DNA of 32,000 nucleotides from Pyrolobus fumarii 1A (GCF_000223395.1 NC_015931.1:1140001-1172000); one strand, 5' to 3'; shown: positions 1,165 to 17,465, numbered from the stretch's first letter. The notes: generated by a model not told the origin, from the sequence alone. Numbers and translations are program-made.

Positions 1165-2619
1165 GTGTCCAATCACTTTAGTGGCTGGGGTTTCCCCATA
1201 CCCCTCTTTGGGTATGTGGTTGTGCGTGGCTGCCGTCTTATTGCGAGGAGCCTGGAAGTGCAAGGTTTCAAGAGCCTGCGTGACGTGAGGATCGAACTGA
1301 TGCCTGGGATTAACGTTGTTGTAGGTCCAAACGCATCGGGAAAGAGTAACATTGTTGATCTTTTTCTGTTCCTCCGGAAGGCTCTCTATGATGAACTCGG
1401 ACGTGTGCCTTATGCTCCTCACCTGCCTTGGGGTGACCCGAGGAACCTCACCTGGGAGACGAGCGGACTGCCGGTACGTGTCGCGATAGAGTACGAGCTG
1501 GTACTCGAGAAAGACGTGCGTCAGACTGTCATATATGAGGTCGTGTTCGGCCTTGAGGAGGGTGCGACCCTAAAGCCTATAGAGGAGTACATCCGCGTCC
1601 CGGTGCTTAATGCTGCACTGCTGCGGCGAGGTAGAAGGATAGACGTCTATCTCAGCAGGCGTTGGGGTAGAATAGAGCAGCTCGGAACCATGATGAAAAA
1701 AGCCGCTACTCTACTCGGTGCGGCGGAACTTGAGATACGGTGCGATGCACGCGGTTGCTACGCGGGCGCTACAGTCGAAAAAGAGTTCACCAGCATCTTT
1801 CAACTCGTCCCGATAACCTACGAGCCGTTGTTCGAGGCACTAAGCGACGTGATTAGAGAGTTTAGAGACCTGACTCGCCGCCTTAGTATCCGGTTTTACC
1901 GTAGCCTATCTATGGGCCTAGTCCTACCCTGGCCCCGCATCTTAAACCCGTGCTTAGAGCTAAACCGCTTACTACTGGTTATCCGCTCGTTCTTCGCCCG
2001 TATAGTGGCGTTACGCCTCATAGACTATTACCGTGCTAAGTGGCCACATAGGCCGAGCGTACGCGATAGGCTCGAGCCAGATGCTAGCAACCTAGCAGAG
2101 GTTATCTATACGCTGCTTAATGATCCGGAGAAGAGAGGCAAGCTCGAGAGTGTCGTCAGGAGTCTTTTCCCGTGGCTAAGGTTTAGTGTGGAGTTCGATG
2201 CTTACGGCAACATAGTCTTAAAGTTCTATGAGGAGAGGGGCGGACGCCTGCTAGAGTTACATCCAGCCATGGTTCCCGAGGGAGTAATAAAGCTACTCAC
2301 AGTGATGACCGGAATCCTCCTAGAACCAAGTATCCTCGTCATTGACGAGATAGAGGACAGTATGCATGCACGCATGATAGAACGATTGTTCGATGAACTC
2401 CGAGGTTTAGAGACCCCCGTCATTCTCACAACACACTCGCCAGTGATAGTCGACCTGGCAGGCCCCGAGCGCCTCATAGTATTGAGGAGAGGCAGTGATG
2501 GCGCTACAATCGCGGAGAGAGTAAGAGAGCCACAGAAGCTCCGCAAGATGCTCGAGGAGGAGGGCGTAACTCTAGGCTACTATTATCTTCACGCTCTGCC
2601 AGAGGAGGACACGGCATGA
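1165..2619 (+). CDS. ABC-type (SMC/RecF-like, AAA_15/AAA_21-type) ATPase; predicted NTPase subunit of a two-gene defence-like cassette.
   Basis: The N-terminus LEVQGFKSLRDVRIELMPGINVVVGPNASGKSNIVD contains a Walker A motif. The C-terminus has PEGVIKLLTVMTGILLEPSILVIDEIEDSMH (signature-like segment, Walker B, D-loop) and ILTTHSPVIVD (H-switch). The true start is probably an internal GTG at 1216 or 1222, because the first ~17 codons of the track ORF precede the usual N-terminal strand. Confidence 0.8.
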   Translation: MSNHFSGWGFPIPLFGYVVVRGCRLIARSLEVQGFKSLRDVRIELMPGINVVVGPNASGKSNIVDLFLFLRKALYDELGRVPYAPHLPWGDPRNLTWETSGLPVRVAIEYELVLEKDVRQTVIYEVVFGLEEGATLKPIEEYIRVPVLNAALLRRGRRIDVYLSRRWGRIEQLGTMMKKAATLLGAAELEIRCDARGCYAGATVEKEFTSIFQLVPITYEPLFEALSDVIREFRDLTRRLSIRFYRSLSMGLVLPWPRILNPCLELNRLLLVIRSFFARIVALRLIDYYRAKWPHRPSVRDRLEPDASNLAEVIYTLLNDPEKRGKLESVVRSLFPWLRFSVEFDAYGNIVLKFYEERGGRLLELHPAMVPEGVIKLLTVMTGILLEPSILVIDEIEDSMHARMIERLFDELRGLETPVILTTHSPVIVDLAGPERLIVLRRGSDGATIAERVREPQKLRKMLEEEGVTLGYYYLHALPEEDTA

Positions 2620-3224
2620 GCAAAACTATACGCATCTTTACACTAGTCGAAGATTCTAGGGGTCAACTAGCAATACACACCATCGTAAAGAGGCTAATTG
2701 ACTGTACCAGTCTAGTCTGCAACTGCAGGCTAGCACACCGCGTAGAGATGGCAAGAGCCCAGAAGTTCAAAGGCCCATGCAACCAAAGCTCCAGAATGCA
2801 AGTCAAGAGTCTAAAGGTACAAGCCAAGATGCGTGACAGAATACCATTGATACTAGTTTTCATCGACACTGATGTTTACAGGGATTACGATGAGATGGTT
2901 GAAAGGGTTTGCATGCATACCCGCGAGGAGTGTGAAAGCGGCCTGCTCTACGTTATACCCGTCGAGCATAACCTAGAGCACCTGCTATGCAGGATAATGG
3001 TTGCTACCAACACTGTAACCGGAAGCTGCAGAGACCCCGAAGGCACACTCTCAAGGCTCCTAGGCCACAAGTACGAGAAGACGTTTGCAGATAGACTAGC
3101 TCCACGCCTCGAAAGGAGCCTATCCGACTGTAAGGTAGTAGCAAGCCTCGCTAACAACATCAAGACATTACACGCCATCGCCGACGTGCTATGCAAACTA
3201 CTATGCAGCGAAAGCAACACATGA
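2616..3224 (+). CDS. Small TOPRIM-like protein (DUF4276/DUF4435-like); predicted nuclease partner of the upstream ATPase.
   Basis: Its ATG overlaps the ATPase TGA (ATGA at 2616-2619). An N-terminal acidic motif IRIFTLVEDSRG is followed by LILVFIDTDV (DxD) and VIPVEHNLEHLL. This matches the E...DxD...E layout of TOPRIM/OLD-type domains, and the 202-aa size is typical of DUF4276 as I recall it. The gene is visibly AT-richer than the ATPase gene. Confidence 0.5.
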   Translation: MSKTIRIFTLVEDSRGQLAIHTIVKRLIDCTSLVCNCRLAHRVEMARAQKFKGPCNQSSRMQVKSLKVQAKMRDRIPLILVFIDTDVYRDYDEMVERVCMHTREECESGLLYVIPVEHNLEHLLCRIMVATNTVTGSCRDPEGTLSRLLGHKYEKTFADRLAPRLERSLSDCKVVASLANNIKTLHAIADVLCKLLCSESNT

Positions 3225-5464: not shown

Positions 5465-6115
5465 CTATCTCTCACTACCGCTCCTCTCTTCCTCTCTCTG
5501 GGCGCCAGCGAGCAGCTTGTACAACTCGTCTATCCTCCTGTTAGTCTCGTCGATGCGTCTGTTCGTCTCCTCGATCTTCCTGCTAAGCTCGTCCCGCATC
5601 CTGTCCATCCTACTGCTTAGCTCGCTATACACCTCCTCGATTTTCCTACTCAGCTCGCTGCGCACCTCATCTATCTTCCTCGCGAGGCCCTCATAGACCC
5701 TGCTGATCTTCTCGCTCAGCTCGTCGTGAACCTTATCTATCCTCCTGTTCACCTCGTCTATGCGCTTGTTAAGCCCGTCGATTCTCTCGTTGATCCTCTC
5801 GTTCAACTCGTTTATCCTTTTATTCGTCTCATCTATACGCTTGTTCACCTCGTCTATCCTCTTGTTTGTCTCGTTGATCCTCCTGTTTAGCTCGTCGTGA
5901 ACCCGGTCAATCCTCCTGTTCGTCTCGTCTATACGCCTATGGACGAGCATAATCTGCTCGAGGATCTCCCTCCTAGACTCCCGGACCTCGTTGTAAACCA
6001 GGTCGAGCATCAGGAGCATGATCTCCTCGGGAGCAAGCCTCTTCCCACTCCTCACCTTCTCCAGTATAACCCTAGAAGCCTCCGCCAAGACACTAGCCAG
6101 GAGATCACTAGACAC
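5465..6115 (-). CDS. Coiled-coil protein built from heptad N(K/R)RIDE(T/V)-type repeats.
   Basis: Residues ~59-198 read RRIDETN RRIDRVH DELNRRI NETNKRIDEVNKRIDETNKRINELNERINERIDGLNKRIDEVNRRIDKVHDEL...IEETNRRIDETNRRIDELYKLL. The whole ORF is open, and the plus-strand ORFs opposite it are low-complexity shadows. Confidence 0.8.
   Translation of the reverse strand: MSSDLLASVLAEASRVILEKVRSGKRLAPEEIMLLMLDLVYNEVRESRREILEQIMLVHRRIDETNRRIDRVHDELNRRINETNKRIDEVNKRIDETNKRINELNERINERIDGLNKRIDEVNRRIDKVHDELSEKISRVYEGLARKIDEVRSELSRKIEEVYSELSSRMDRMRDELSRKIEETNRRIDETNRRIDELYKLLAGAQREEERSGSER
5522..5941 (-). repeat. In-frame, degenerate 21-nt tandem periodicity inside the coiled-coil CDS.
   Basis: Plus-strand units recur every 21 nt, for example ctcgtctatcctcctgtt / ctcgtcgatgcgtctgtt / ctcatctatacgcttgtt / ctcgtctatcctcttgtt / ctcgttgatcctcctgtt. 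This corresponds to the 7-aa protein repeat. Confidence 0.75.
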
Positions 6116-6957: not shown

Positions 6958-7302
6958 CTAGAGGAGTCTCATCCAGTACTCCATCGCATCCTGTACCACT
7001 ACACTCCTCTTCTTGGCCCTCTCGAACTCCTCCGGCGTATAGAGGAGTATTTCGAGCGACACGTCACCCGGCAACAGTTCCCGTATCATGGCATACCTCT
7101 TGCCTGGGTCGAGCCCCCTGAACCTCGGCGAGACTATGATGAGGTCTATGTCGCTATCCTCGAGCCAGTCGCCACGCGCATAGCTCCCGAAGAGGTAGAC
7201 CTGGGCCTCGCCGAGGACGGCCCTAACCCTCTCGACGATCTCCGCTAGCACCCTCCTGACCCTCTCTGGGAGCCCCGGTGAACCCGAGGAGCCTACCGAC
7301 AT
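6958..7302 (-). CDS. Minimal nucleotidyltransferase (MNT, Pol-beta superfamily), HEPN-MNT pair A.
   Basis: AQVYLFGSYARGDWLEDSDIDLIIVS carries the G[SG]...DxD motif. It overlaps the 3' end of the upstream HEPN gene. The true start may be the internal GTG giving MLAEIVERVRAVLGE.... Confidence 0.85.
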   Translation of the reverse strand: MSVGSSGSPGLPERVRRVLAEIVERVRAVLGEAQVYLFGSYARGDWLEDSDIDLIIVSPRFRGLDPGKRYAMIRELLPGDVSLEILLYTPEEFERAKKRSVVVQDAMEYWMRLL

Positions 7303-7669
7303 GCTCCACCACCCTCTCAGCTACACCCACAAGCCTCTCAGCAGTCTCCCTGGGTATACTCTCCCAGGGCCTCTCTAATCCGGCATTCGGGTACCTGGCG
7401 AGCGTATAGTAGGGGGTGAGCTCGGCGACACCCACGTAGAGCTCGCGGGGGAGCCTCAACCCGAGACCCTCGACGAGTCTAACAAGATCGTGTGTCTTAG
7501 GCGGCCTAGCCCTCTTCAATACCATGTATGCGGCTTTCAACGCCTTCTCGACAGCCTGGTGCGCGGCAAAAAGAGCCCAGTTGTACCTACCCCGCCTCAA
7601 CGCATCCCGAGCCTCATCGAGATCGACAAGAGCGCCATCAAACCAGTCTCTAGCCTCACTCCTAACCAA
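7223..7669 (-). CDS. HEPN-domain protein, pair A.
   Basis: ARDWFDGALVDLDEARDALRRGRYNWALFAAHQAVEKALKAAYMVLK...PKTHDLVRLVE...YTLARYPN is the typical PF05168-type HEPN layout. It lies immediately upstream of an MNT gene. Confidence 0.85.
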   Translation of the reverse strand: MVRSEARDWFDGALVDLDEARDALRRGRYNWALFAAHQAVEKALKAAYMVLKRARPPKTHDLVRLVEGLGLRLPRELYVGVAELTPYYTLARYPNAGLERPWESIPRETAERLVGVAERVVEHVGRLLGFTGAPREGQEGASGDRREG

Positions 7670-8182: not shown

Positions 8183-8758
8183 GTGCTTGCCGAGCATCTA
8201 GACCGGCCTCTGCCCAAGCCGCGGCGCGACCCCGTGGGCTACGCCGCTGCTCGTGCGCTAGAGGCTCTGCTGGAAGCTGTGCTGGCTCTCGTGTTCCTCG
8301 AGAAGGGCTTCACCCGGAATGCTGCCGGGAAGGCGTTCCAAGCCTGGAAGGCGCTGACGGCAGCACTCCTGGCCCTAGAGAGGGATAGGATAGCTGAGGG
8401 GCTGAGGGACGAGGAGCAGAGGAGATGGCTACTCGAGAGGGGTATACCCAGAGTCCCTAGTAGCAGGCTTAAGCATCTAAGCCAGCTCCTAGAGAAGGCG
8501 GGAATCAACTACTACAGCTTCATCACCGATAAGGCCCTGAGCCTCCACGACTACCAGTACCACAGCCCAGACCCGGACCTCGAGCTTAGCAAGTACCGGA
8601 GCCGAAGCGAAGCGGTATACGATATCGTGGCTCTACTGGCGGAGCTAGCCAGGATAACCGAGGAGCTAGTGAAACCGAGGCTACGGGAAGCGAACAAGTG
8701 GGACAAGAGCCACGAGGAGGCCCTACAAGAGCTACGAGAGAAGCTAGCCAGCCGCTAG
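8183..8758 (+). CDS. Long PaREP1-like family protein, copy 1 (function unknown).
   Basis: One of four ~190-aa paralogs sharing the invariant TRNAAGKAFQAW and (H/Y)(D/E)YQYH(G/S)PDPD blocks. The helix pattern FLEKG.TRNAAGKAFQAWKAL...LSLHDYQYH parallels the EKAWGAAALAVKA...MHTCFYEG core of the classical PaREP1 gene at 15625..16137. Confidence 0.75.
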   Translation: MLAEHLDRPLPKPRRDPVGYAAARALEALLEAVLALVFLEKGFTRNAAGKAFQAWKALTAALLALERDRIAEGLRDEEQRRWLLERGIPRVPSSRLKHLSQLLEKAGINYYSFITDKALSLHDYQYHSPDPDLELSKYRSRSEAVYDIVALLAELARITEELVKPRLREANKWDKSHEEALQELREKLASR

Positions 8759-8908: not shown

Positions 8909-10066
8909 TTACACCGAGCCAATCGGAGCTATCTGGGCGACGTAGGCCCTCACAGCCCACGATGAGAGACTCTTGGGACCCAACAGCTTCTCAGTCACAC
9001 CGAGCAGCTCTTGCAGCGCTTGTATCGTGTAGGTGTGGCCTAGCGCGGTCTCGAGCCTCGCCCTTGGAGCCACGAACGTCAGCTGAGGAGCCAAGAGACT
9101 AGCCACGATAACATCCGCTAGCAGCTCGTGGGGCACCGCGAGATTAGCGGCTAACAGCCTACAAGCGTCCACGTATAGCGCGGGGCCGACCAGCAACCCT
9201 AGCCTCTCGAAGTGTCTCGACACCTCCTCTACGATAGCCCAGAGTCTGCTCGGAGCGGTCAAGTGCGGGGCTATCCTCTCCGTGTCAAGTGGTGCTAGTG
9301 GCGCCTCGAACCTGGCTACGACGTTCCTCGGTAGAAGGCTCCAGGGTTCTCTACGCACGGCCTTCGGTAGATCAGCTAGCGTGGATCTCACACTCTCGGC
9401 GCATATGTCTGTACGTCCCGGCCTGGCGGGTTCCAGGTCCTCCGGGACCTCGACAATGTGCCCTAGACTCGTTACGGGTAGCAGAGGTGCCCTACGGGCA
9501 AACGCATACCCTATCCTGTAGAGGTGCCCCATATCGAGAAGGTTCATTGTCGCTATCATTCTCCAAGCGAGGGGCATCGGCAGGCCTCTCCTAGACGCGT
9601 ACTCGGCTAGCTTCTCGGCCACCGGGTTCAAAGAGCCGCATTCCTCCCTAACGCTCTCCCGCAGAACCCTGGCTAGCTCCTCGCTAGGCCTGAGAAGCGT
9701 GAAGCGAACCCTATGGTCAACATCGAGAAGCGTGAATACCTCGCCAAGCACGACCTCGACTCTGGCCCGGTTAACCTCGTCAAAGATAAACCAAACGGGT
9801 GTCTTCCCGCATGTGTACCTGGCCCACGTGCGTATCACAGAGCGTGCCAGGGCACCCTCCTCTACATCCATGAGGTCGCTGTAGTTGAGATCCTCGCGGC
9901 CAGTCACAAACTCGTAGTCATAGCCACGCTCTTCTGCCAGGAGCACAGCTAACCGGGTCTTCCCGGAGCCTGGCGGGCCAACCAAGCAGAGCGACTTGTC
10001 AGCCCTCAAGAGATACTCGGCAGCCTCGCGGGTCGTCACCTGGTAGGCTCGCACCTTGCTATGCAC
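8909..10066 (-). CDS. mcrB: McrB-like AAA_5 NTPase lacking an N-terminal DNA-reading domain.
   Basis: Walker A LVGPPGSGKT lies at residues 28-37. FIFDEVNRARVEVVLGEVFTLLDVDHR matches the McrB-family DEiNRan...fGE...llE..R signature, and MIATMNLLDMGHLYRIGYAFARRA matches the GTMNtaD...D.AlRRRF segment. A further ~170 aa of unknown C-terminal extension follows. Confidence 0.7.
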   Translation of the reverse strand: MHSKVRAYQVTTREAAEYLLRADKSLCLVGPPGSGKTRLAVLLAEERGYDYEFVTGREDLNYSDLMDVEEGALARSVIRTWARYTCGKTPVWFIFDEVNRARVEVVLGEVFTLLDVDHRVRFTLLRPSEELARVLRESVREECGSLNPVAEKLAEYASRRGLPMPLAWRMIATMNLLDMGHLYRIGYAFARRAPLLPVTSLGHIVEVPEDLEPARPGRTDICAESVRSTLADLPKAVRREPWSLLPRNVVARFEAPLAPLDTERIAPHLTAPSRLWAIVEEVSRHFERLGLLVGPALYVDACRLLAANLAVPHELLADVIVASLLAPQLTFVAPRARLETALGHTYTIQALQELLGVTEKLLGPKSLSSWAVRAYVAQIAPIGSV

Positions 10067-10977
10067 GCTTCCACCTCCTCATCTATCTCGTTAGGCGCGA
10101 CGCCTAGCACCCTGACATCAAGGGTATAGAGGCTAGGATCTAGTAGCTCTGCGGTCATTCCAATCCTCTTAGCAGCCTCACGTAGAGCGTTCAGCGCCGA
10201 TTGTGTAGACCTGACCTGCTCGACCGCACGGCACAATAGCCGTAGCTCGGCTGTGAGCAGCTCCGCGACACGCCCTCGGGGATCACCAGTCTTCACGGGT
10301 ATCAGTGGCGCAAGCTTGCCAGCGATACGTGAGCCACGCAAGTGTTCCTGCATGTACCGGAGGGTGCCCGCCGTGCAGACATCGGCGCTAACGGTGCTAG
10401 CTATGCCGACGGCTATCGCTAGGAGGTGATACGCGGGAGTCACGCGTAGAAGCGTACCCAGCAGGAAGATGATAGACCCCACGGTGACGGCATCCAACTG
10501 CATACCATACGCTCTGACCACACTAGCGATGCTCTCGGCGAGCTCGGTTAGTAGAGCCTTGTTGTTCTTCTCCCACTCGCTACAAGCCTCATCGTCATTC
10601 TCCAGGCGAATGACATAGCCTCTACGAAGGTCGTTCACCATCGGTGGGTATACACGGATAGACCTACGCAACTTATCATCGAGATCCTCGCAGCTCAGCT
10701 CAACTATGAAACGTGCGGATTTGCCAAGCTTGGTGCTCAGCTCGCCCTTCAGCATCAGAAGCAATAGGGACTCTACAGCATCCCTCCCCCACGTTCCAGC
10801 CTTCAAGGCACCCTCAACGAGACTAGCATAACGCTCACAGCCGGAGGGCACTGCAAGAACCTCAATACCAGTAGCGTGTATCGTGAAGCCACCTAGAAGG
10901 GCTAGCGTAGTGTCCACATTCGTACGCAAATATGGCGCATCGAGTGTCTGGAAGAAGTATGGGTTGTAGCGTGCCAC
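10036..10977 (-). CDS. Hypothetical 313-aa protein, translationally coupled upstream of the McrB-like gene.
   Basis: Long open frame with a GTG start at 10977. Its 3' end overlaps the McrB-like start by 31 nt. I recognise no motif. There is a hydrophobic stretch LDAVTVGSIIFLLGTLLRVTPAYHLLAIAVGIASTV in the middle. Confidence 0.6.
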   Translation of the reverse strand: MARYNPYFFQTLDAPYLRTNVDTTLALLGGFTIHATGIEVLAVPSGCERYASLVEGALKAGTWGRDAVESLLLLMLKGELSTKLGKSARFIVELSCEDLDDKLRRSIRVYPPMVNDLRRGYVIRLENDDEACSEWEKNNKALLTELAESIASVVRAYGMQLDAVTVGSIIFLLGTLLRVTPAYHLLAIAVGIASTVSADVCTAGTLRYMQEHLRGSRIAGKLAPLIPVKTGDPRGRVAELLTAELRLLCRAVEQVRSTQSALNALREAAKRIGMTAELLDPSLYTLDVRVLGVAPNEIDEEVEACIARCEPTR

Positions 10978-11016
10978 TCCCTACATTCCCGGAGGGTATT
11001 ACGCGCATATAGGGAG
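10977..11016. promoter_or_regulatory. Compact bidirectional promoter/operator candidate between the 313-aa/McrB-like operon and the McrC-like gene.
   Basis: Only 49 nt separate the two start codons (10977 and 11027). The 7-nt inverted repeat CTCCCTA (10977-10983) / TAGGGAG (11010-11016) encloses two A/T patches, TATTA (~10997-11001) and ATATA (~11007-11011). Each patch lies ~25-32 nt from one start, as expected for leaderless archaeal genes. Confidence 0.35.
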
Positions 11017-11026
11017 GCTTAGAAGA

Positions 11027-12181
11027 ATGTACCCTGTTTTGACATTGGAGGAGGCACGCTGGTACAGCATCGAAAGGTTGTCGAGAGAAACGGGCCTCGG
11101 CATAGACGCGCTCCGTGATCTGCTAGGCCGGTTGGCTCTGCTCGAGGAGAGAGCCGTAAACGCGCTAGCCGAGACGGGGGTCAACGTCGACGAGGTAAAC
11201 CCGGTTGTGTTGAAGAACGACACCGTATACAGTGGCGACTGGGTAGGCGTCGCGACGTTCACCTTCAAGGGCTCGCTGTACACTATAGTCGTGAGGCCGA
11301 AGATCAGCTGGTTCGACGATATGGTGCAAAAGGCTCTAGGGGTATTGGCGCGCCTAGGCGCTGGGAGCGTCTACGCCAAGCTCGAAGCGGCGATAGCCTC
11401 TGCAGGCGCGATTAGGCTGCCAGGTGCGCTCCTAGCGTCAATGTTCATAGAGGAGTGGGCCAGGAGCCACCCAATAACACCGAGGAACCTCGCAACACTA
11501 GCATACATGACCTATGCGGCAACCGCATCAGTAACCAAGATGCTCGCCAAGCTGCAAGTGCCGATGGCCGTGAGAATACCGGCTTCAGCGCCGCTACTAG
11601 CTCTAGCTTCAAACCCACTGGTAGCACAGTCCCTCCATACGATGCCAACAGAAGAGCCACACTACGAGCCTGTAGAGGAGGCAGCCCTCCTAGCCCGAGC
11701 CTCGACAGTACAACTAGGAAGCCTAGCATATAACCTCACGATGCTCCTGCCAGCACCCAAGCTGTTCGAACTTGCAGTCCTCGCGGAGATCCTCGACGTG
11801 ATGCACAGGGAGAGAGGATGCAAAACCGTGAAAATCGAGGACTGGACCCTGATACTCGACTGCAGGGACACAGAGGCGAGGATATACTACAACAAGTCGC
11901 CACGCTCAAGGCTCATCGAGAGGCTAGTCGGCACGAGACTCAAGCCAGACACAGTCATAGAAACAGACGACGAGCTGCTAATCGTGGAGGCGAAATACAG
12001 GAGGTGTGACTCGCACCTAGGCATAGGCGATGCAGTTAGGATAGCCGCCTACATGTACGACCTGGATCCCAACACTCTAATCATAGTCTACCCGGAGTGT
12101 GTCAAGACCAGACATGTGAATGAAAAGGTCGTTATAGTACCGTTCAACGAGCTAAAAGAAAGACTCGAGCAATTATTGTAG
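11027..12181 (+). CDS. mcrC: McrC-like PD-(D/E)xK nuclease subunit.
   Basis: The N-terminal GDWVGVATFTFKGSLYTIVVRPKI matches the McrC nYVGvi...g..i.I.PKi signature. The C-terminal LKPDTVIETDDELLIVEAKYRR...DAVRIAAYMY matches the PD...(D/E)xK core and the following Q/aY helix of McrC-type nucleases. Confidence 0.7.
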   Translation: MYPVLTLEEARWYSIERLSRETGLGIDALRDLLGRLALLEERAVNALAETGVNVDEVNPVVLKNDTVYSGDWVGVATFTFKGSLYTIVVRPKISWFDDMVQKALGVLARLGAGSVYAKLEAAIASAGAIRLPGALLASMFIEEWARSHPITPRNLATLAYMTYAATASVTKMLAKLQVPMAVRIPASAPLLALASNPLVAQSLHTMPTEEPHYEPVEEAALLARASTVQLGSLAYNLTMLLPAPKLFELAVLAEILDVMHRERGCKTVKIEDWTLILDCRDTEARIYYNKSPRSRLIERLVGTRLKPDTVIETDDELLIVEAKYRRCDSHLGIGDAVRIAAYMYDLDPNTLIIVYPECVKTRHVNEKVVIVPFNELKERLEQLL

Positions 12182-12393: not shown

Positions 12394-13545
12394 TTGGCGT
12401 TACAGAGAGATGTGAATGCAGTACTTGTTGTACCGTCCTTCTACCATAACGTTGTTTCTATGGACTTGGGGTCTGTTCTCGAGGCTCAATATGGTGTCCG
12501 GATTGCCGGTGTATTTCTACCCGCCCAGATTTGTAGACAGGATAGAGGCAGTTATGTGTGCGATTTTGAGAGGACCGAGCTAGAAGGTAGCATACTGTAC
12601 ACGAATGTGAAGAATCAGCTCGTTAAGTTGCAGAGGGTTTCCGGTGTTCTTGAGCAGCTCGGGTATAGGATCTCCACGGTGGTTGTTCATACGGAGCTTA
12701 GGATGCCTCTATGGAGTGAAGGGTGGTTCCGGAAGCTCTATGCTAGGCTGTTATCCGTGTTGCCCAGTCTCTTGGAGGAGGCGGGCATAGACGCCAAGCA
12801 TGTCGTTGTTGAGATGCATCCTGGTTTTAACGAGCCGCAGTGCTATAGCCGTGTGCAGCTGGACCGCTCGTGTGTTGATGTTGGGCGTCACGCCGGTATG
12901 ATTGTGGACGCGATTGGAGATTTGCTAGAATCGTGCCCCAGTGGCGTCGAGTGCATGTTTACCATCGAGAATAGGTCTGGTTCGCCTACACAGGTTAGGC
13001 GTTATGGTAACATTGTCGAGATATCTGGGTTCACTTCGCGTAGACCCCAGGCACTTGCAAGTTTCTATGACGTCCTTGAGGAGATCAGGATAGTGAGCCG
13101 TGCAGCGAAGGAGACGCTGGGAGGAGTACCCGTCGGAGCTACACTGGATATACCCCAACACCTTAGGGGGCTCTACCGCCAATTACCCAAAGAGCAGAAG
13201 GGTATACTCGGCGTGGCAAAGGAGGAGCTGGACAGGCTGCTAGAGAAGCTTGCTAGCACAGCCCGCGAGCTGGGAATGCCGGTGCTACGGTCTCTGCATA
13301 TCCACTGGTTCGGGTCTAGAAGTAATGGTGTCCCTGAAACTCATGCAGCGTTGACCAATGAAGTGTTCAGAGAGATCTATGTGAAACTATCGAATTGGCT
13401 TAGAGTAGAGACACCAAGAGTCGTGCAAAAACCATTGCTTATGGTCCCTGAGGCTCTGCCGGGAAGAGGAGGGAAGAATCAAGAGATAATCGATACGATG
13501 ATTTACACTGCAAAACTAGTTAGTACCATCAACGAGGGTCGATAA
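12394..13545 (+). CDS. Divergent xylose-isomerase-like / AP-endonuclease-2 (EndoIV/UvdE-like) TIM-barrel protein (tentative).
   Basis: An ordered ladder of candidate metal-ligand motifs is present: VVHTE, VVEMHPGF, MFTIENRSG, ATLDIPQH, SLHIHWFGSRSNGVPETH. It resembles the HPG / lEN / D..H / H.H order of EndoIV and UvdE. The gene has lower GC than its neighbours and sits behind an AT-rich spacer with a TATA-like box. Confidence 0.4.
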   Translation: MALQRDVNAVLVVPSFYHNVVSMDLGSVLEAQYGVRIAGVFLPAQICRQDRGSYVCDFERTELEGSILYTNVKNQLVKLQRVSGVLEQLGYRISTVVVHTELRMPLWSEGWFRKLYARLLSVLPSLLEEAGIDAKHVVVEMHPGFNEPQCYSRVQLDRSCVDVGRHAGMIVDAIGDLLESCPSGVECMFTIENRSGSPTQVRRYGNIVEISGFTSRRPQALASFYDVLEEIRIVSRAAKETLGGVPVGATLDIPQHLRGLYRQLPKEQKGILGVAKEELDRLLEKLASTARELGMPVLRSLHIHWFGSRSNGVPETHAALTNEVFREIYVKLSNWLRVETPRVVQKPLLMVPEALPGRGGKNQEIIDTMIYTAKLVSTINEGR

Positions 13546-13588: not shown

Positions 13589-14164
13589 CTACAATCCTAG
13601 CTTCTTTCTAACCTTTTCTAGAGTCTCTCTGAGCCGTGTGAATGCGCTCTCTACTTCACTGTCCCAGGGTATCTTGCCTCTCATTGCCTCTATGTTCTCG
13701 ATGAGCCTCTCGATCAGCATTATTGTGTCTTGTGCTGCTTCGCGCCTATCCCGGTATCTTGAGAGGGCCATGTCAGGATCGGGGCCGTGGTACTGGTAGT
13801 CGTGTAGGTCGAGGGCTAGACTCGTCCAGGCTGTTATATCGCGGTATCCGAGCCTCTCGAGAAGCTGGGATAGTGGCTTTAACCTAGTTGTTGGTAGCTT
13901 CGGTACACCCCGCTTCACGATCCACTCTCTCTCAGCCTTGCTCTCCACCACCTCGAGGAGCCTGTCTAGCTCGACTCGAAGGATTGCCGCGAGAAGAGCC
14001 CTCCAAGCCTGGAACGCTTTCCCTGCTGCGTTCCTCGTGAGGCCCTTCTCGAGGAAGTGGAGCGCGAGAAGGGCCTCTACCAGAGCCTCGAGTGTACGTG
14101 CAGATGCGTATTCCTTGCTACTCGGCCTGGATAGGGGCTTCTCAAGGGCCTCGTACACTTTCAA
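13589..14164 (-). CDS. Long PaREP1-like family protein, copy 2.
   Basis: KPLSRPSSKEYASARTLEALVEALLALHFLEKGLTRNAAGKAFQAWRALLAAIL...LDLHDYQYHGPDPDMALSRYRDRREAA aligns end to end with copies 1, 3 and 4. Confidence 0.75.
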   Translation of the reverse strand: MKVYEALEKPLSRPSSKEYASARTLEALVEALLALHFLEKGLTRNAAGKAFQAWRALLAAILRVELDRLLEVVESKAEREWIVKRGVPKLPTTRLKPLSQLLERLGYRDITAWTSLALDLHDYQYHGPDPDMALSRYRDRREAAQDTIMLIERLIENIEAMRGKIPWDSEVESAFTRLRETLEKVRKKLGL

Positions 14165-15624: not shown

Positions 15625-16137
15625 CTATCCTGAGCATATTCTCCTCTCTATCTCGCTCACTAGCCTCTCTATCTTCTCAAGAGCTTTCTCCACATCTTCT
15701 CGGCTACACCATCCCTCGTAGAAGCACGTGTGCATCCCGTTTGCATACATCCATGCATCCCTAACCCAGTCTCCGAGCTCCCTAGTCACATGTCTCATGT
15801 ACTCCCATAGCTCGCCGTGGCTAGCCAGCCTCCTCCCATCCCTCCACGCCGCGTAGGCCTTGACAGCCAGCGCAGCAGCCCCCCACGCCTTCTCAGCAGC
15901 CTGCCTCACGTTACCCCTAGTCAGCTCTTCCCTCGCCTGCTCGAGGAGGCTTTTGGACGCCTCGATGTACTCCCGTGCTCTCTCGGGCGGGTCAAGATCA
16001 CGCAATACAAGCTCCACGAGATACTCTTCGGGGCTTAGGCCGAGCTTCTCAGCCTCCTCCCTCAGCCTCCTGACAACGCTAGCCGGCACGACAATAGTCT
16101 CTAGTGCCATCCAGACACCCATCACAACGTCTACCAT
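15625..16137 (-). CDS. Classical PaREP1-family protein with an N-terminal RHH-like segment.
   Basis: IVVPASVVRRLREEAEKLGLSPEEYLVELVLRDLDP precedes RAREYIEASKSLLEQAREELTRGNVRQAAEKAWGAAALAVKAYAAWRDGRRLASHGELWEY...ANGMHTCFYEGW. This matches the PaREP1/PaREP8 (PF05942) pattern as I remember it. The start could be ATG 16137, 16122 or 16110. Confidence 0.7.
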   Translation of the reverse strand: MVDVVMGVWMALETIVVPASVVRRLREEAEKLGLSPEEYLVELVLRDLDPPERAREYIEASKSLLEQAREELTRGNVRQAAEKAWGAAALAVKAYAAWRDGRRLASHGELWEYMRHVTRELGDWVRDAWMYANGMHTCFYEGWCSREDVEKALEKIERLVSEIERRICSG

Positions 16138-16705: not shown

Positions 16706-17044
16706 CTAGTTACATCTACTACACTCAAGGCGCTTAGCTGTTCTGTATCTTCTTAGGCTCTCGGGCCCAACTATATGGAAGTCTATCGGCAGGTAGAGCG
16801 GTATGCCTGCCTCCTCTAACGCCTCCAGTATCTTCTCACGTATCTGAACCGCCTCCTCGAAACTAGGCTCGTGATCCAATACTACCACGATATCAACATC
16901 GCTCATCGCCGTTAACCGGTTTTCAGCTGCACCACCCACAAGGTAGAACTCAGCCTGAAAACCCAGGTTTTCAAGCACGCATATAATCTCACAAAGCCTA
17001 TCTAGAGCCTCACGCAGCAATCGAAGCCTAGTGAACCTCACCAA
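16706..17044 (-). CDS. Minimal nucleotidyltransferase (MNT), pair B.
   Basis: EFYLVGGAAENRLTAMSDVDIVVVLD. It overlaps the upstream HEPN gene by 17 nt. Confidence 0.8.
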   Translation of the reverse strand: MVRFTRLRLLREALDRLCEIICVLENLGFQAEFYLVGGAAENRLTAMSDVDIVVVLDHEPSFEEAVQIREKILEALEEAGIPLYLPIDFHIVGPESLRRYRTAKRLECSRCN

Positions 17045-17465
17045 ACACCTCCCTCTCTATGCGGGATAAGAGTTTAATCATATCGCGAGCTATATGTAGC
17101 AGTCTCTCCGCCTGACTTCTGCTATACTCGAAGACTCCATAGACGGCTCTGGTGTGTCCCTCTTCAAGCTCAGCTAGCAGTCTCCTGTTACTGGCTACGA
17201 ATCTCCTCACCTCGTCCGCCAGTGTCTCGAAATTCTCGCCCTCCAGGGTCTCGACTAGCAAGGCTAGGAGAGCACGTATGTTATGTCCTCGATGCTCTTC
17301 ACCAGTCAGCCTATAGAGCAGCGACTTCAGGTAGAGCTGGGCAGCGTACTCAGCGTGTAAAACCGTGAGGTCATACTTGTTCTCGCGGAGTAGTCTCTCG
17401 GCTAGCTCTAGCATGGTGAGCGCTCTCTTTTTCAACAGCCTCGGATACTCCCCGCTCAAGCCCAA
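17028..17465 (-). CDS. HEPN-domain protein, pair B.
   Basis: LLKKRALTMLELAERLLRENKYDLTVLHAEYAAQLYLKSLLYRLTGEE..GHNIRALLALL... It has the same layout as the other HEPN genes in the window and sits directly upstream of an MNT gene. Confidence 0.75.
   Translation of the reverse strand: MGLSGEYPRLLKKRALTMLELAERLLRENKYDLTVLHAEYAAQLYLKSLLYRLTGEEHRGHNIRALLALLVETLEGENFETLADEVRRFVASNRRLLAELEEGHTRAVYGVFEYSRSQAERLLHIARDMIKLLSRIEREVFGEVH

Follow-up and report, generated by a model that had tools for sequence, protein, structure and literature searches.

The window analysed here is a stretch of 32,000 nucleotides (nt) from the genome of Pyrolobus fumarii 1A (positions are counted from its first letter). 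It contains a three-gene locus, encoding a motor of 385 amino acids (aa), a nuclease-like protein of 384 aa and an orphan protein of 313 aa, which on balance probably represents a derived member of the McrBC family, that is, a nuclease system of three proteins driven by nucleoside triphosphates (NTP). Among restriction enzymes that are NTP-driven and modification-dependent McrBC is the classic example, and the choice of target normally resides in a domain fused to its motor. Homology makes it very likely that the 385-aa and 384-aa proteins form a McrB/McrC pair. The 313-aa protein is rather probably a genuine subunit or partner of this pair, while a role as its specificity subunit is proposed only tentatively. 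All three proteins are found as 100%-identical database entries from the P. fumarii genome, the source of the window, the 313-aa protein being entry Pyrfu_1240. The locus is laid out as follows:

8909..10066, minus strand: McrB-like AAA+ (AAA_5) motor gene, 385 aa (open reading frame (ORF) listing, Pfam, profile search, hhalign)
10036..10977, minus strand: orphan 313-aa gene, product predicted to be all-alpha, first in a two-gene operon (ORF listing)
10036..10066, minus strand: out-of-frame overlap of 31 nt between the stop of the 313-aa gene and the GTG start of the motor gene (ORF listing, sequence)
10978..11026, no strand: divergent intergenic spacer of 49 nt, presumably the shared promoter region (sequence)
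11027..12181, plus strand: McrC-like nuclease gene, 384 aa, divergent (ORF listing, transitive profile homology)

The locus had been singled out in an original prediction made from the sequence alone, and everything which it listed is present: the three ORFs, exactly where it placed them, the motifs it quoted, the overlap of 31 nt and the spacer of 49 nt. Its description of mcrC as divergent across 49 nt is likewise borne out, but the partner across the spacer is the 313-aa gene, the first gene of the operon, and not mcrB itself. Compared with a related contig carrying a motor of 88% identity (L014), the ratio of nonsynonymous to synonymous substitution rates is 0.11 for the motor gene and 0.17 for the 313-aa gene, and over the first 93 codons of the McrC-like gene it is 0.35, which indicates that all three are real genes under purifying selection and not chance ORFs. 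The 31-nt overlap would imply translational coupling of the 313-aa gene and the motor. The spacer is approximately 90% identical to the 50-nt spacer of L014. Two stretches in it, GGTATTACG and CATATAG, are A/T-rich. Short complementary ends (TCCCTA...TAGGGA) flank these A/T-rich, TATA-like stretches, and the spacer with such ends could be a candidate shared promoter or operator.

The motor carries the following elements:

9956..9979, minus strand: Walker A, GPPGSGKT, residues 30-37 (sequence; invariant in profile A6)
9764..9790, minus strand: Walker B and the following Asn, FIFDEVNRA, residues 93-101 (alignment, hhalign)
9533..9547, minus strand: McrB signature MNxxD (MNLLD, residues 174-178) (profile search, hhalign)
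9488..9502, minus strand: FARRA, residues 189-193 (alignment, hhalign)

Pfam AAA_5 matches the motor at E=1.1e-12. When profile A6, built from the motor and nine homologues, was searched against the PDB, the top five distinct sequences were all McrB of Escherichia coli or Thermococcus gammatolerans (6e-13 to 4e-11), Cdc48/VCP and midasin ranked below McrB, and MoxR, RavA and CbbQ were absent among the 60 matches listed. An hhalign comparison of A6 with E. coli McrB (EcMcrB) gave a probability of 98.1% (E=7e-14) and placed D96/E97/N99 of the motor on D279/E280/N282, and M174-N175-L-L-D178 on M332-N333-T-A-D336. Walker A, Walker B with its Asn, MNxxD and an Arg motif are the McrB-defining elements in Niu et al. 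(PMC7680126) and Bell et al. (PMC11090510), and the heptad MNxxDRS in place of sensor 1 is the McrB signature (PMC7680126, PMC11090510). The Pyrolobus motor has the NxxD core and the full heptad only partly, as MG follows instead of RS (MNLLDMG); a sister clade of motors, described below, has DRA. R191/R192 align with two of the three Arg in the LRRRF motif of EcMcrB and, following published McrB work, would act as arginine finger or sensor II. Homology thus identifies the 385-aa protein as a McrB-type AAA+ motor, as originally predicted, with every catalytic element intact and without a fused reader.

The possibility that the AAA_5 protein is a chaperone ATPase of the MoxR/GvpN type, and that the locus is no nuclease system at all, is largely refuted and must be regarded as very improbable. 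The best NCBIfam match is GvpN (E=2.4e-7), but with 30.6 bits it stays far below the cutoff of 266.8, and it is restricted to the Walker A region. The sequence DExNRA after Walker B is typical of MoxR proteins too. Besides the first rank of McrB in the profile search and the absence of MoxR-type proteins from the matches listed there, this explanation is contradicted by the replacement of a MoxR-type sensor 1 by MNxxD, by the conserved PD..ExK nuclease motif in the adjacent gene and by the lack of a VWA partner gene in the locus.

A fused N-terminal domain binding DNA or its modifications was not found in the motor. Walker A begins at residue 30 (not at residue 28 or so, as first estimated), and the start codon of the ORF is already the first one to follow a stop, so that the ORF cannot be extended upstream to include such a domain; the claim that the motor lacks a reading domain therefore stands. 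McrB's N-terminal domain contributes to GTP recognition, according to PMC7680126. The original prediction also considered the long C-terminal part of the motor as a possible target reader. However, the C-terminal half aligns end-to-end with relatives of 418-443 aa, and longer relatives with N-terminal domains of their own cover 83-92% of the motor query, the C-terminal region included. Since the region is common to relatives which have their own EVE-type reader, a reading function is not supported, and these alignments point to a family feature of this McrB subfamily and not to a special extension.

In the 384-aa protein three conserved regions were recognized:

11234..11305, plus strand: N-terminal beta motif GDWVGV (70-75)...RPKI (90-93); G70, W72, G74 and P91 invariant in nine McrC-like proteins
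11747..11773, plus strand: LPAPKLFEL, first helix of the nuclease domain; P242, K245 and E248 invariant; resembles ...YQKFLYEF... of E. coli McrC (EcMcrC) by eye
11945..12004, plus strand: PD-x12-E-A-K catalytic motif, PDTVIE (307-312) and IVEAKYRR (319-326); aligned with EcMcrC

The identity of this protein was reached transitively. It has four known relatives only (42-45% identity), one of which, at locus L007, matches the nuclease part of the Pfam McrBC model (PF10117) at E=1.4e-3 (18.1 bits; gathering score 23.9); P0002 matches the same model at E=0.1, and the partner of a more distant motor at locus L009 is alone in passing the gathering score (25.8 vs 23.9). Motors which are 30% identical to that of Pyrolobus (P0011-P0019) are followed by co-directional downstream genes for proteins of about 450-490 aa, the L009 partner among them. 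An hhalign comparison of the Pyrolobus-type McrC-like family (A2) with these downstream partners (A4) gave 98.9% (E=3.6e-17) over 334 columns spanning both the N-terminal and the nuclease regions, and 97.4% was obtained with the downstream partner at locus L015. In addition to the residues listed above, N289, P307, D308, K323, Y324, D335, R338, Y342 and D345 are invariant in all nine McrC-like sequences and position 321 is always D or E. Two further residues, R130 and R146, do not vary among the Pyrolobus-type proteins and are possible candidates for the Arg/Lys which the finger domain of McrC inserts at the NxxD site of McrB. The alignment with EcMcrC, though of low probability, sets D308/E321/K323 exactly on D244/D257/K259, residues experimentally defined by Pieper & Pingoud (2002) as cited in PMC3874153. 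The transitive homology and the alignment of the triad thus identify the 384-aa protein as a McrC-type subunit with an apparently intact PD...ExK site, which upholds the predicted PD-(D/E)xK nuclease. In a low-confidence AF2 model the order of secondary structure elements around the catalytic motif is compatible with a PD-(D/E)xK fold.

Several results weigh against this picture of the nuclease. The 384-aa protein has no direct match in Pfam (E<=1), NCBIfam, PADLOC or the PDB, and hhalign against EcMcrC alone yields a probability of only 6%. The AF2 model, based on an alignment of three sequences, has a mean confidence (pLDDT) of 41 and is too poor to reveal the fold, and Foldseek comparisons of the AF2 models of the 384-aa and 313-aa proteins with the PDB returned noise only (best E 0.5-0.7, TM score below 0.2). 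Furthermore, some 70-80 residues of the middle region as it is known from the sister clades are missing, so that engagement with the motor ring may differ. Apart from these results, a match to the finger domain DUF2357 was not obtained with Pfam, and a scan of GTDB genomes with the McrC-like profile returned only the already known locus of a Pyrolobus sp. metagenome-assembled genome (MAG). Residues 7-48 resemble a helix-turn-helix by eye, an idea which was abandoned as Pfam gave no support for it even at E<=10.

Related loci were recovered from a number of contigs:

L014: motor 88% identical; 313-aa gene, motor and N-terminus of the McrC-like protein (contig end); overlap 31 nt; spacer 50 nt
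L003/L004/L005 (Pyrolobus sp. MAG and others): motor 67% identical; all three genes; overlap 34 nt
L007: motor 65% identical; all three genes; overlap 52 nt; spacer 15 nt
L006: motor 56% identical; 313-aa gene and motor only (the contig starts inside the 313-aa gene); overlap 4 nt
L001: 313-aa gene and divergent McrC-like gene (contig end); spacer 99 nt as called

In every one of these contigs the 313-aa gene adjoins the motor gene, the divergent McrC-like gene or both, as the predicted linkage of the three genes would have it, and contigs of sufficient length invariably show all three. Where a locus has both the 313-aa and the motor gene, their overlap always keeps the same relative frame, and a mcrC-like gene directly downstream of the motor and co-directional with it is not found in the window; it is divergent also in L014, L003, L007 and L001. 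The 313-aa and McrC-like proteins (41-45% identity) diverge at much the same pace, and faster than the motor (56-67%). The flanking genes vary, with DUF58 and DUF4129 genes in L014, a DUF2283 gene in L006 and a HEPN-MNT pair in L003, L004 and L007, which singles out the three-gene module as the conserved unit.

The 313-aa family is tiny and confined to Pyrolobus-like hyperthermophiles. An exhaustive HMMER profile search of 1.84e9 representative proteins returned four cluster representatives, all close relatives, and none in any other gene context. No relative was found in Pfam (searched with all six members), NCBIfam, PADLOC, the PDB (sequence and profile), by phage tblastn or in viral contigs, and the sole profile matches are designed helical repeat proteins, which were not counted as real. 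Scans for the family in JGI metagenomes and viral contigs added nothing new, and a metagenome scan with the motor profile gave generic AAA+ matches only. Invariant motifs of the family include YNPYFFQTL (4-12), NDLRRGYV (115-122) and R-x-TPAYH (178-184), and the low-confidence AF2 model (pLDDT 50, three-sequence alignment) is all-alpha with about 18 helices. Three ways of connecting the protein to other sequences were tried. Its origin as a split-off N-terminal domain of longer McrB homologues was rejected (best hmmsearch E=0.16 among 52 sequences), homology to protein X of the sister clade or to a 308-aa ORF upstream in L015 is not supported (hhalign E=0.12-0.5, with one local match of 25 residues only), and there is no evidence for a frameshift programmed to fuse it to the motor, as no slippery heptamer was seen in the overlap, the length of which varies among relatives.

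The central hydrophobic segment which had been noted in the 313-aa protein is hydrophobic as described, but resolves into two adjacent, moderately hydrophobic helices (about 161-179 and 185-203), with the invariant R-x-TPAYH loop between them. These features might suggest that the protein is membrane-associated through the helices and tethers or activates the motor and nuclease at the membrane in an infection-sensing or abortive-infection-type system. With a Kyte-Doolittle value of 1.8 in a 19-residue window the helices are borderline for a membrane span, however, and the soluble motor itself has a window of 1.89, such values being common in the cores of hyperthermophile proteins. The invariant Arg, His and Tyr between the helices, the lack of an evident signal peptide and the packing of both helices inside a helical bundle in the low-confidence AF2 model speak in the same direction, and a membrane role appears quite improbable.

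The wider motor subfamily provides clues to the derivation of the locus. The motor homologue P0045 has an N-terminal EVE domain (E=6e-9) and P0021 a subthreshold one, while in P0034, at locus L015, about 200 extra N-terminal residues could not be assigned to a domain, and a mcrC-like gene comes after it in the same orientation. The existence of motor relatives with EVE readers and a normal downstream mcrC suggests that the Pyrolobus locus is a derived McrBC. In a sister clade (L010, L025, L008, L011 and L026) domain-less motors are preceded by a conserved gene of about 365 aa, X, with all genes co-directional; hhalign gave no significant match between X and the 313-aa family (E=0.12-0.13). In the derived form in Pyrolobus, therefore, the motor would be bare, the mcrC-like gene inverted, and the place where the other clade keeps a different partner taken by a lineage-specific one. 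X is split into two ORFs on two independent metagenomic contigs, L008 (4843-5941) and L026 (2970-3798), and intact in L010 and L025; the splits may reflect pseudogenisation or assembly errors.

The following mechanism is proposed for the Pyrolobus system. The 313-aa protein and the motor would be produced from one transcript via overlapping frames, as their linkage and overlap suggest, and the gene overlap and strict co-occurrence point to the 313-aa protein as a stoichiometric partner of the motor. By analogy with the McrBC paradigm (Niu 2020, PMC7680126), six motor subunits would assemble into a ring, into which the McrC-like protein would insert its middle region and so stimulate hydrolysis, and the nuclease domain would then cut nucleic acid, probably invading DNA. 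The third subunit would make good the deficiency of the bare motor, in all likelihood by recognizing or recruiting the target, or else by giving an activating signal. Targeting by the 313-aa protein, as suggested in the original prediction, is plausible and, given the analogy with the separate R1 subunit of the LlaI/BsuMI systems, the most economical reading. The shared spacer of about 50 nt suggests that the two transcription units are probably co-regulated, while the dosage of motor and nuclease would be able to differ. As no methyltransferase accompanies the module (a scan of flanking ORFs in the window revealed none, nor did the called genes of L003, L004, L006, L007 and L014), a type IV-like or modification-independent logic fits better than a LlaI-like restriction-modification system. 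A broader and more speculative proposal, for which we claim no more than tentative standing, is that the 313-aa protein and, independently, X represent a new class of detachable alpha-helical adaptors for McrB motors. Such adaptors might replace the fused reader and set the target of the nuclease, for example a certain modification of viral DNA, a structure formed by DNA or an infection signal other than DNA, and hyperthermophilic Crenarchaeota may possibly have made McrBC modular and three-part repeatedly, with folds unseen elsewhere.

Other functions of the 313-aa protein are kept alive by its acidic character (isoelectric point 5.8), by the absence of any recognizable nucleic-acid-binding domain in it and by locus L009, where a domain-less McrB-McrC pair has no co-directional gene directly upstream, so that a partner is not obligatory in the wider family. 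A regulator, a membrane anchor or a hitch-hiker could all be accommodated by these observations. The 313-aa protein could be a regulator which keeps the bare nuclease inactive until triggered, whether as an inhibitor (a safety catch), as an immunity factor resembling an antitoxin or as a chaperone of assembly. Tight translational coupling suits stoichiometric control as well as it does a specificity subunit, the mildly acidic protein has no DNA-binding signature, L009 suggests that the bare pair can exist without a partner, and there is a loose parallel in E. coli McrB-S, a modulator of McrBC (PMC3874153). The protein is, however, unlike any known antitoxin or regulator and, at 313 aa, large for an antitoxin, and a McrB-McrC pair without a reader would still need some means of finding its target. 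A regulatory role is therefore considered unlikely, if less so than a membrane anchor. The two-gene arrangement in L009 would also agree with a pair that works alone, the 313-aa gene being an unrelated, lineage-specific passenger of the operon, and the confinement of the family to Pyrolobus-like genomes and vent metagenomes means that the synteny may partly reflect shared ancestry. Nevertheless, relatives with as little as 41-45% protein identity retain both the linkage and the frame of the overlap although the flanks differ (L014 and L006 vs the window), the family is unseen in other contexts, and the sister clade independently keeps a partner gene at the same position; there is thus little to recommend a mere passenger.

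Compared with canonical McrBC (EcoKMcrBC and that of T. gammatolerans), the three-protein Pyrolobus system is alike in the Walker A, Walker B, MNxxD and RR register of its motor, in the PD-x12-(D/E)-x-K site of the nuclease partner (in register with EcMcrC D244/D257/K259) and in lying in a defence-rich region. It differs in lacking the fused reader, the complete MNxxDRS, the co-directional downstream mcrC and the longer McrC middle region of the canonical systems, in having an extra orphan gene translationally coupled to the motor, and in that Pfam McrBC does not detect its McrC-like protein directly. A similar architecture is described for LlaI/BsuMI, which are three-gene McrBC-like systems with a DNA-binding module (R1), an AAA+ motor (R2) and a McrC-like protein (R3) (bioRxiv 10.64898/2026.08.31.748284). 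The three-gene operon of LlaI is also cited in PMC7680126 (its ref 26), and LlaI lies in an operon with its methyltransferase. LlaI/BsuMI share with Pyrolobus the three components, a motor to which no reader is fused and, immediately upstream of the motor gene, a gene for a separate protein, whereas the Pyrolobus 313-aa protein is without detectable similarity to any PDB chain or Pfam family and the Pyrolobus nuclease gene is divergent.

The X-McrB-McrC operons of the sister clade, which come from metagenomes and are apparently undescribed, resemble the Pyrolobus locus in their domain-less motors (about 30% identical over the full length), in their homologous McrC-like partner (98.9%) and in having an upstream partner gene; they differ in their three co-directional genes, in an X without significant similarity to the 313-aa family and in longer McrC-like proteins. 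As to the type IV systems with EVE-McrB or other reader-McrB fusions (Bell et al. 2020, 2024), the distant homologues P0045 and P0021 of the same motor subfamily carry EVE, while the Pyrolobus motor has lost a fused reader or never had one. The CoCoNuTs (Bell et al. 2024, PMC11090510) hardly occur in archaea and are recognized by three traits, namely the NxD form of the signature, fusions to coiled coils and nucleases in tandem. Like them, the Pyrolobus system is a McrBC derivative with extra components, and HEPN genes lie near it, but its motif is NxxD (NLLD), neither the motor nor the McrC-like protein has a coiled-coil fusion, and the HEPN-MNT pair is absent from the closest relative, L014.

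The claim that the locus is an undescribed archaeal variant holds in part. The orphan partner is new, whereas a three-gene McrBC with a separate DNA-binding subunit is already known from LlaI/BsuMI. A literature search found no published description of this locus, and its novelty lies in three points: the family of the orphan partner, the nuclease gene whose divergent position is conserved, and the occurrence in parallel of an unrelated partner in the sister clade. If the partners are specificity or sensor subunits, the known ways of targeting McrB motors would be extended, and entry points would be gained to defence in organisms growing above 100 °C, of which, to our knowledge, almost nothing has been examined experimentally. 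If they are only regulators, they would constitute a modest addition to a very large catalogue of McrBC variants, the diversity of which is already very large (Bell et al. 2024, PMC11090510).

The region surrounding the locus is rich in defence and toxin-antitoxin genes, including a HEC-01A-like ATPase, HEPN-MNT pairs and PaREP1 genes. The following features were recorded in the window:

1165-2619, plus strand: 484-aa ABC/OLD-type ATPase (PADLOC HEC-01A, E=2.6e-29; Pfam AAA_21/AAA_15)
2616-3224, plus strand: 202-aa gene overlapping the ATPase gene, downstream of it (weak HEC-01B match, E=0.0027)
5465-6115, minus strand: 216-aa coiled-coil protein with repeated NRRIDETNKRIDE-like heptad units (many weak coiled-coil Pfam matches)
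7223-7669 and 6958-7302, minus strand: pair of HEPN (E=3e-28) and MNT nucleotidyltransferase (E=7.5e-16) genes, downstream of the motor
8183-8758 (plus strand), 13589-14164 (minus strand) and 15625-16137 (minus strand): PaREP1-family genes, three within 8 kb, one of which also scores as HEPN
12394-13545, plus strand: orphan ORF of 383 aa which follows closely on the McrC-like gene, downstream of it (without a match in Pfam, NCBIfam or PADLOC)
17028-17465, minus strand: further HEPN gene

Some 6 kb away from the McrBC-like locus, the genes at 1165-2619 and 2616-3224 form what may be a second system of defence. A PaREP1 gene separates the HEPN-MNT pair from the motor in the window, the pair lies directly downstream in L003, L004 and L007, and it is absent in L014 and L006, an association that is recurrent and not obligatory. 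PaREP1 copies on opposite strands bracket the McrBC-like module. The stretch of the 383-aa ORF is low in GC (0.47 vs 0.56-0.60 for neighbouring stretches), and the thioredoxin gene found at the same position in L003 suggests that this ORF is probably outside the module. In the sister clade, large conserved genes precede the X-McrB-McrC operon, encoding proteins of 931 aa (with a faint UPF0020 methylase match), 925 aa and about 250 aa:

L008 1-4401, L010 1-4388 and L026 1-2408: conserved genes preceding the X-McrB-McrC operon

These upstream genes may be part of a larger restriction or BREX-like island.

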